Below, one piece after another: positions 4,161 to 4,303 of a stretch of 4,335 nucleotides of DNA (position 1 is its first letter; the number at the start of each line of letters is the position of its first letter). The stretch is from positions 1-4,335 of the IMG/VR virus record IMGVR_UViG_2711768058_000007. The stretch is one strand, 5' to 3'. The notes under the pieces were generated by a model, which saw only the letters and a program-made list of their open reading frames with translations, had not been told where the DNA came from and did no database searches. This DNA is from a virus. Lineage: Duplodnaviria > Heunggongvirae > Uroviricota > Caudoviricetes. A program made the translations under genes and the position numbers.

Positions 4161-4255
4161 TATTCATCTCCATTATTGATATGGTGTTGACATCGTTAAT
4201 ACCTGTTGGTTAAAAAAGCGTCCTGCATGTTTTGCTTTGGATATGACGACATTTG

Positions 4256-4303
4256 CCGCCGGTTCTGGCTCCTTGTTTTCCCTGCCCCGGCGGTCTTTTT
4301 TTT
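4256..4303 (+). terminator. Terminator-like hairpin plus T8 run on the plus strand, opposite to all genes
   Basis: CCGCCGG (4256-4262) pairs with CCGGCGG (4287-4293), followed by TC and TTTTTTTT (4296-4303). The loop is long (24 nt), which weakens the call. On the minus strand the same element reads A8 then hairpin, so it is not a minus-strand terminator. Confidence 0.35.

Follow-up and report, generated by a model that had tools for sequence, protein, structure and literature searches.

A predicted EcOnc33-type small RNA gene in the gap between the esterase and lysis genes of an Escherichia coli lambdoid prophage

The window, by which we mean the whole stretch of 4,335 nucleotides that was analyzed (positions 1 to 4,335 of IMG/VR record IMGVR_UViG_2711768058_000007), covers the late/lysis region of an E. 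coli lambdoid prophage, and its right end is 99.8–100% identical to E. coli O157:H16 strain Res13-Lact-PEA12-26. A preliminary description, made from the sequence alone, had placed all genes on the minus strand, and this is true of the real genes, among them the prophage sialate O-acetylesterase gene at the right end and the DUF1378 gene (3978–4160). The order of genes on that strand after the esterase is DUF1378, DUF826, a class II holin, YdfR and lysozyme. The element that is the subject of this report is found on the plus strand, convergent with the esterase, in the 148-bp gap that separates the esterase gene from DUF1378. The features of the gap and its borders are as follows:

3978–4160, minus strand: DUF1378 gene (homologue of Sakai ECs_1528), divergent from the sRNA promoter.
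4187–4192, plus strand: −35 hexamer TTGACA, read from the sequence, 6/6 match.
4211–4216, plus strand: −10-like hexamer TAAAAA, 4/6 match to TATAAT, with no T at position 6.
4222–4303, plus strand: predicted sRNA orthologous to EcOnc33, ~77–82 nt, based on the probe match, the identity to Sakai Sp6 and Table S2 of Tree et al. 2014.
4223–4236, plus strand: 5′ seed CUGCAUGUUUUGCU, predicted to pair with arcA from −7 to +6.
4255–4294, plus strand: terminator hairpin, with arms at 4255–4262 and 4287–4294 and a loop at 4263–4286.
4296–4303, plus strand: T8/U8 tract, the terminator tail and the expected site for the Hfq proximal face, preceded by one C (C4295).
4309–4335, minus strand: 3′ end of the prophage sialate O-acetylesterase gene (NanS-p type, SASA family), stop codon at 4309–4311, assigned from the RefSeq annotation of NZ_CP062876.1 (locus 99.8–100% identical) and from Sakai ECs_1527.

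Upstream of the esterase gene, ~2.2 kb past the right end of the window, we also observed an STnc100 sRNA (Rfam RF02076, 134.6 bits) and three tRNA genes (L001 8557–8754, minus strand). The resulting succession of an STnc100/PasD-type sRNA, the esterase, a convergent sRNA and the lysis genes mirrors that of prophage PP2 in strain E2348/69, where the order is PasD2, esterase, PasA and holin.

The elements on which the preliminary description had based its proposal of a plus-strand transcript, namely TTGACA at 4187–4192, TAAAAA about 18 bp downstream, a GC-rich stem and a run of eight Ts, were all confirmed in the sequence. The spacer between the two hexamers is 18 nt, within the 16–19 nt range of sigma-70 promoters. 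From the position of the −10 element we infer a start site at ~4221–4224, which fits the 5′ end of the target of a published Northern probe (4220) and the 5′ end of the sRNA half of a CLASH read (4222), both of which are described below. The 5′ arm of the hairpin, G4255–G4262, is GCCGCCGG and the 3′ arm, C4287–T4294, is CCGGCGGT, so that the stem consists of seven Watson–Crick G–C pairs and a closing G4255–U4294 wobble. The loop is 24 nt long (4263–4286) and is partially closed in the ViennaRNA fold by GGC4267–4269 and GCC4284–4286; if these three extra pairs form, it shrinks to 14 nt. An energy calculation, one of the checks that had been proposed for the terminator, bore it out: the hairpin has a value of −18.4 kcal/mol versus −10.0 ± 2.65 kcal/mol in shuffles of the same 40 nt, and only 11 of 2000 shuffles were equally stable. 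The T8 at 4296–4303 is the sole T-run of eight or more in the window, and it ends 5 nt short of the esterase stop codon (4309–4311, minus strand).

Compared with a typical intrinsic terminator, the structure has the GC-rich stem and a U-tract of at least six residues, and it does not have the short loop (typically 3–8 nt). Neither the promoter nor the terminator was called by the consensus scanner. The terminator was missed because the scanner accepts only loops of 3–8 nt, and the promoter because position 6 of the −10 element has to be a T under its rules. The predicted length of the sRNA, 77–82 nt, is somewhat longer than the ~71 nt reported for the orthologue of strain Sakai. The sequence features of an Hfq-dependent sRNA are present, with ACAUUU directly 5′ of the stem, the U8 tail and an accessible seed. 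For the 33 nt at the 5′ end of the sRNA, there was no structure common to the folds of the window and Sakai RNAs, and the consensus fold of this part amounts to a 3-bp helix.

Two features of the opposite strand were observed in the same stretch. The first is a promoter-like site on the minus strand at 4172–4199 (TTAACG, 16 nt, AATAAT; 9/12), which overlaps the −35 element of the sRNA back to back. This site is directed into DUF1378 and could provide a start for the lysis-proximal genes that is independent of the late promoter, or it could reflect the mere AT-richness of a divergent promoter region. The other lies on the strand of the late transcript at 4211–4241 (minus), where CGCUUUUUU stands 3′ of a weak, interrupted hairpin (UCC..GCA..UGC..GGA); the U-run of CGCUUUUUU is the complement of the sRNA −10 region. 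It may be a pause site or weak terminator of the late mRNA, or a coincidence of the A-rich −10 element.

A published oligonucleotide allowed the element to be matched to a known RNA. The Northern probe for EcOnc33 is AAATGTCGTTATATCCAAAGCAAAACATGCAGGAC (Tree et al. 2014, Mol Cell 55:199, PMC4104026, supplementary oligonucleotide table), and its reverse complement is identical to the plus strand of the window at 34 of the 35 positions from 4220 to 4254, with one mismatch, and is found exactly in the gap between ECs_1527 (esterase) and ECs_1528 (DUF1378) of prophage Sp6 in O157:H7 strain Sakai. The window locus has 97.5% identity over 163 nt to O157:H7 genomes, EDL933 included. At the Sakai Sp6 locus, which is likewise 97.5% identical to the window, the flanking genes are the same and both lie on the strand opposite to the sRNA. 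The EcOnc33 gene of Sp6 agrees with the window in its seed, its orientation and its distance to the esterase stop codon, and differs from it in four respects: the window has C4219 for T, G4245 for A, T4294 for C, and T8 for T7. As a consequence of T4294 the closing pair of the stem is G–U in the window and G–C in Sakai, whereas none of the four differences falls in the −35 element, the −10 element, the seed or the 5′ end of the sRNA. The two copies also differ in background, in that EcOnc33 was described in O157:H7 Sakai and the window comes from a non-O157:H7 background, the closest record being an O157:H16 isolate from swine.

In Sakai, EcOnc33 of prophage Sp6 was identified as an Hfq-CRAC peak in five of five data sets, with an AUC of 2.6e7 that is about that of EcOnc03, and was reported with a predicted Rho-independent terminator and a Northern band of ~71 nt (Tree et al. 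2014 Table S2, PMC4104026). These data support the small RNA of about 80 nt that had been proposed for the plus strand of the window. It is important to note that the published coordinates of EcOnc33, 1557089–1557136, refer to an older Sakai record, for which reason the identity that we assign rests on sequence and not on coordinates; the position in NC_002695.2 is ~1557271–1557191 (minus strand). At the EcOnc33 locus, we observed a shift of ~141 nt between the positions that the 2014 and 2017 supplements give for EcOnc RNAs and those of NC_002695.2; mapping by coordinates only would put EcOnc33 inside the coding sequence of the esterase. Judged by sequence, the plus-strand element at 4187–4303 is almost certainly the orthologue of EcOnc33. 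The sRNA is thus not new, EcOnc33 having been catalogued since 2014 and detected in Sakai by Northern blot. No Rfam 15 family was matched anywhere in the window at E ≤ 1, so that membership of the AgvB, AsxR, STnc100 or any other curated family was rejected; RefSeq/PGAP has no feature at the locus corresponding to 4180–4303 in the records compared, Sakai among them; and in the searchable literature there was no main-text mention of EcOnc33, the later papers on EcOnc RNAs treating EcOnc10–12 (HnrS), EcOnc27, EcOnc53 and Esr41.

Of 5426 complete E. coli genomes, 362 (~6.7%) carry the gap, taken as a 175-nt stretch, and in 310 of these 362 its identity is 95–99%. Its carriers are mostly O157:H7 strains, EDL933 included, and have one copy per genome. 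Among the phage genomes of INPHARED, 4161–4335 was unmatched, also in the distant mode of the search, and matches to 3900–4335 were restricted to the DUF1378/DUF826 part. A search of the GTDB species-representative genomes with the exact 21-nt seed returned no matches and is uninformative, the element being strain-specific accessory DNA. Seven divergent E. coli loci show no variation in the −35 and −10 elements (TTGAC and TAAAA), the 3′ arm or the T-run. We further compiled 15 unique variants from the E. coli loci and a pattern scan of IMG/VR, and the promoter and terminator elements persist in all of these; this persistence is in part a product of selection by the pattern, which fixed TTGAC, the 3′ arm, the T-run and CCTGCT, leaving only the −10 element and the variant bodies free in the IMG/VR sequences. 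TTGAC is kept in 15 of 15 unique variants, and where an 11-nt deletion has removed part of the promoter, a neighboring TTGACA becomes the −35 element. The T-run is T7–T8 in nearly all variants and T6 in one, the 5′ sequence CUGCAU-U(n)-GCU is retained in most of them, and one group of variants has an internal duplication.

The length of the loop varies between 17 and 24 nt among the variants through insertions and deletions, and the arms are unchanged. Covariance of the hairpin, a further check that had been suggested, was uninformative: the hairpin is conserved in the variants and, since its arms never vary, there was no covariation signal. The invariance of the arms is partly imposed by the IMG/VR pattern, and was also seen in the pattern-free BLAST set with the exception of strain JE86. 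In all EcOnc33-type variants the loop motif CUUGUUUUCCCU is kept, despite the range of 17–24 nt in loop length, which suggests that the motif may be a second functional site, such as an Hfq contact or a second seed. The exception just mentioned, E. coli JE86-ST02 (NZ_AP022811.1, L010 259–426), has a different sRNA-like body of ~106 nt in the same esterase/DUF1378 gap. This body is flanked by a similar promoter (TTGACT ... TAAAAA) and by a terminator that shares the CCGGCGG 3′ arm, with a T7 run, and its stem has paired changes at the base and one mismatch. The JE86 locus points to a cassette-like exchange of sRNA bodies at a fixed prophage slot. TTGACA on its own is not unusual, with two plus-strand occurrences and one minus-strand occurrence in the window, about the chance expectation; what lifts the element above chance is its conservation, together with the experimental detection of an Hfq-bound RNA from the same locus in Sakai.

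Evidence that the hairpin folds in vivo comes from an RNase E-CLASH study of Sakai, in which an intramolecular EcOnc33 hybrid was recovered with 99 reads, CCTGCCCCGGCGGCCTTT being joined to ATTTGCCGCCGGTTCTGG (Waters et al. 2017, PMC5286369). Of these two sequences, CCTGCCCCGGCGGCCTTT is the 3′ arm of the hairpin and ATTTGCCGCCGGTTCTGG the 5′ arm, so that the two arms were ligated to each other in vivo, and the arm-to-arm hybrid supports the folding of a hairpin with a 24-nt loop. The size of the loop had been regarded in the preliminary description as weakening the terminator call, an objection that is answered by this hybrid and by the variants in which the arms are kept with loops of 17–24 nt.

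The same study contains hybrids between EcOnc33 and mRNAs. A hybrid with arcA (ECs5359) was reported with five reads, replicated, in both orientations and at an FDR of 2.7e-4 (Waters et al. 2017, EMBO J 36:374, Table EV7, PMC5286369), and it ranks highest of the EcOnc33–mRNA hybrids among the matches listed in 2 of the 18 parts of that table. The read is ATTTAGGTAGCAAACATGCAGACC joined to CCTGCATGTTTTGCTTTGGAT, and its halves are found exactly in the arcA leader and in the Sakai locus; the sRNA half is also exact in the window, at 4222–4242. In the same parts of the table, a hybrid with ECs0890 involves the same 5′ region of the sRNA, with just two reads and unreplicated (Waters et al. 2017, PMC5286369). 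The seed CUGCAUGUUUUGCU is predicted to pair with arcA from −7 to +6 (UAGCAAACAUGCAG) in a duplex of 13 bp with a single bulged U and an energy of −18.1 kcal/mol. For the whole 33-nt 5′ part of the sRNA the predicted interaction with arcA is −23.9 kcal/mol versus −15.6 ± 2.9 kcal/mol in shuffles (14/2000). When the sRNA was co-folded with arcA, the terminator stayed closed and the 5′ end of the sRNA paired across the start codon. The common S1-CAM-type variants (CUGCAUUUUUUGCU) are without the central G–C pair to arcA. A further idea, that the sRNA gene is a captured arcA leader, was rejected on two counts: the complementarity from −59 to +7 (~−42 to −45 kcal/mol, duplexfold) was equalled by 117 of 1000 shuffles, and local alignment to the reverse complement returned the 14-nt seed only, with a score that was matched by 72 of 2000 shuffles.

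Taken together, we consider it very likely that 4187–4303 on the plus strand is a complete EcOnc33 gene, encoding a trans-acting, Hfq-dependent sRNA for which arcA is the best candidate partner. The proposed sequence of events is that a sigma-70-type promoter (TTGACA, 18 nt, TAAAAA) would start transcription at ~4222, and the hairpin at 4255–4294 with the U8 at 4296–4303 would terminate it 5 nt before the esterase stop codon, giving an RNA of ~80 nt, the unstructured 5′ end of which would then base-pair in trans in an Hfq-dependent manner. Were CUGCAUGUUUUGCU to pair with arcA from −7 to +6, it would mask the start codon, so that ArcA synthesis would be expected to fall. The Hfq binding, the ~71-nt band and the ligation of the arms on which this reading draws are known for the 97.5%-identical Sakai orthologue rather than for the window strain. 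We are more guarded about the target: it is a tentative proposition, slightly less probable than its opposite, that arcA is truly regulated by EcOnc33, and more tentative by a shade that EcOnc33 is a prophage-encoded ArcA repressor whose seed at 4223–4236 pairs across the start codon. We treat the link to arcA as a lead, a published yet undiscussed data point rather than an established function.

The closest parallels to the locus are PasA (PP2) and PasC (PP5) of EPEC strain E2348/69, which are Hfq-dependent and were verified by Northern blot (Pearl Mizrahi et al. 2021, Sci Adv; Zhu, Shabalina and Storz 2026, bioRxiv). Like the window RNA, they occupy the slot between the esterase and the holin/lysozyme genes, are convergent with the esterase and end in a 3′ stem–loop and poly-U, and in both their loci and the present one an STnc100/PasD-type sRNA lies upstream of the esterase. 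They are of similar size (79–85 nt) and have a TTGACA promoter, an A-rich −10 element, a GC stem of 7–8 bp, a large loop and U7–8, as does the window RNA, although their loops are 13–19 nt versus 24 nt in the window, and the distance to the esterase stop codon is 2 nt for PasC versus 5 nt for the window RNA. In contrast to this likeness in position and layout, the bodies, seeds and terminator arms of PasA and PasC are unrelated in sequence to the window RNA. Membership of a PasA/PasC family was therefore rejected, MAFFT and nhmmer giving no demonstrable homology: an nhmmer profile of the 15 EcOnc33 variants scored at best 3.6 bits (E 0.27) against the E2348/69 loci (17 kb), and its resemblance to PasA and PasC (0.1–3.6 bits) was non-significant and limited to the promoters. 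On this sequence comparison we treat PasA and PasC as positional and architectural analogues, not as demonstrated homologues, of EcOnc33; according to the authors who described PasA, its EHEC homologues are EcOnc51 and EcOnc52, not EcOnc33. We also observed that the predicted seed of PasA overlaps the PasA terminator, and that PP2 has a second, PasC-like module downstream of PasA (L002 2364–2474, minus strand; NC_011601.1 ~743263–743373), with its own TTGACA...AAAAAT promoter and a terminator that abuts the esterase stop codon. The published minor form of PasA, 236 nt long, ends exactly at the terminator of this second module, and the presence of the module downstream of PasA implies that PP2 has two convergent sRNA modules in tandem.

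Other phage and prophage RNAs are less close. AgvB (EcOnc01) and AsxR (EcOnc02) resemble the window RNA in being prophage-encoded, Hfq-bound and short, and in running convergent to the late operon from a site bounded by the late promoter and the lysis genes, and differ from it in their 3′ domain and length (51–60 nt). They also differ in partners, AgvB and AsxR being sponges of GcvB and FnrS, whereas the EcOnc33 hybrids among the matches listed in the table parts covered are with mRNAs. The lambda OOP RNA and P22 sar are, like the window RNA, short, terminator-ended and transcribed against a phage operon; they act on the overlapping phage mRNA, whereas the Hfq binding and the chimeras of EcOnc33 with core-genome transcripts point to action in trans.

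Several other explanations of the element were weighed. The preliminary description had left room for a plus-strand protein-coding gene starting at the ATG at 4227, as this reading frame is open to the end of the window. When the sequence past position 4335 was examined, the frame was found to end after 48 aa, antisense to the esterase gene, and a coding role is refuted further by the variants, since 8 of 13 unique variants have ATT in place of the ATG, in-frame stops occur in two variant types, and both the loop indels of 5–7 nt and the T7/T8 difference shift the frame. There is, moreover, no evident upstream Shine–Dalgarno sequence, and the locus is featureless in RefSeq; we give the coding explanation virtually no weight. 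A chance hairpin or relic terminator, with no functional RNA in the window strain, would be in keeping with the weak −10 element, the large loop and the closing G–U pair where Sakai has G–C. It is very improbable given that the promoter and terminator elements are all intact and conserved, that the near-identical Sakai copy is abundantly Hfq-bound and visible on Northern blots, and that the T8 of the window, compared with T7 in Sakai, should if anything improve termination. The hairpin had also been suggested to be a barrier to antisense read-through; as a separate explanation this does not stand, because the hairpin is the sRNA's own terminator, but the element does keep transcription of the sRNA out of the esterase gene.

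Of more substance is an effect in cis, by antisense pairing or transcriptional interference, on the Q-dependent late transcript that runs from the esterase through the lysis genes. By our analysis, such an effect, akin to that of lambda OOP or P22 sar, might take the form of RNase III cleavage, or, in lysogens, of a damping of the leaky transcription that reaches the holin and lysozyme genes. The RNA has full complementarity to the part of the late mRNA between the esterase and DUF1378 genes, and convergent sRNAs recur at this slot, with PasA, PasC and the JE86 body all in the same orientation, which suggests that the position itself is selected. More broadly, convergent sRNAs and sRNA dyads have been found between the late promoter and the lysis genes in at least eight Sakai prophages (Tree et al. 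2014; later review). Set against this are the binding of the RNA by Hfq and, within the table parts covered, its chimeras with core-genome mRNAs, a combination that is the hallmark of sRNAs acting in trans. Another explanation is also needed for the conserved 5′ sequence CUGCAU-U(n)-GCU, since any body at this slot would already be antisense to its own locus. We regard the cis explanation as unlikely, while noting that it and action in trans are not mutually exclusive. Less likely again is that the RNA is a sponge of the AgvB/AsxR type, with core-genome sRNAs as its main partners. It is true that EcOnc33 came from the same discovery screen and the same prophage region as AgvB and AsxR, and that it is short and Hfq-bound. 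The window, however, has no match to Rfam AgvB (RF02702) or AsxR (RF02703) at E ≤ 1, its RNA is without the conserved ~42-nt 3′ region of those sRNAs, and the EcOnc33 hybrids among the matches listed in the 2 table parts are with the mRNAs arcA and ECs0890. We hold with considerable confidence to the reading of the window RNA as a functional, trans-acting Hfq sRNA.

As a discovery the element adds little, because EcOnc33 was catalogued in 2014 and verified by Northern blot. It does demonstrate that a reading from sequence correctly called an sRNA gene that is absent from RefSeq/PGAP and from Rfam 15, and standard annotation is accordingly blind to EcOnc33 in the 362 complete E. coli genomes (~6.7%) noted above. 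Exact coordinates and parts are now given for an EcOnc33 orthologue outside O157:H7. With EcOnc33, PasA, PasC and the JE86-type body, the gap between the esterase and the lysis cassette of lambdoid prophages is seen as a recurrent slot for interchangeable, convergent sRNA genes. In addition, an unexploited chimera in the published table parts links EcOnc33 to the start codon of arcA. If this lead proves true, an Sp6-type prophage that is present in nearly all O157:H7 strains would retune the redox and respiratory gene expression of its host, and a widespread O157:H7 prophage would thereby be tied to ArcA, the core regulator of aerobic versus anaerobic respiration.
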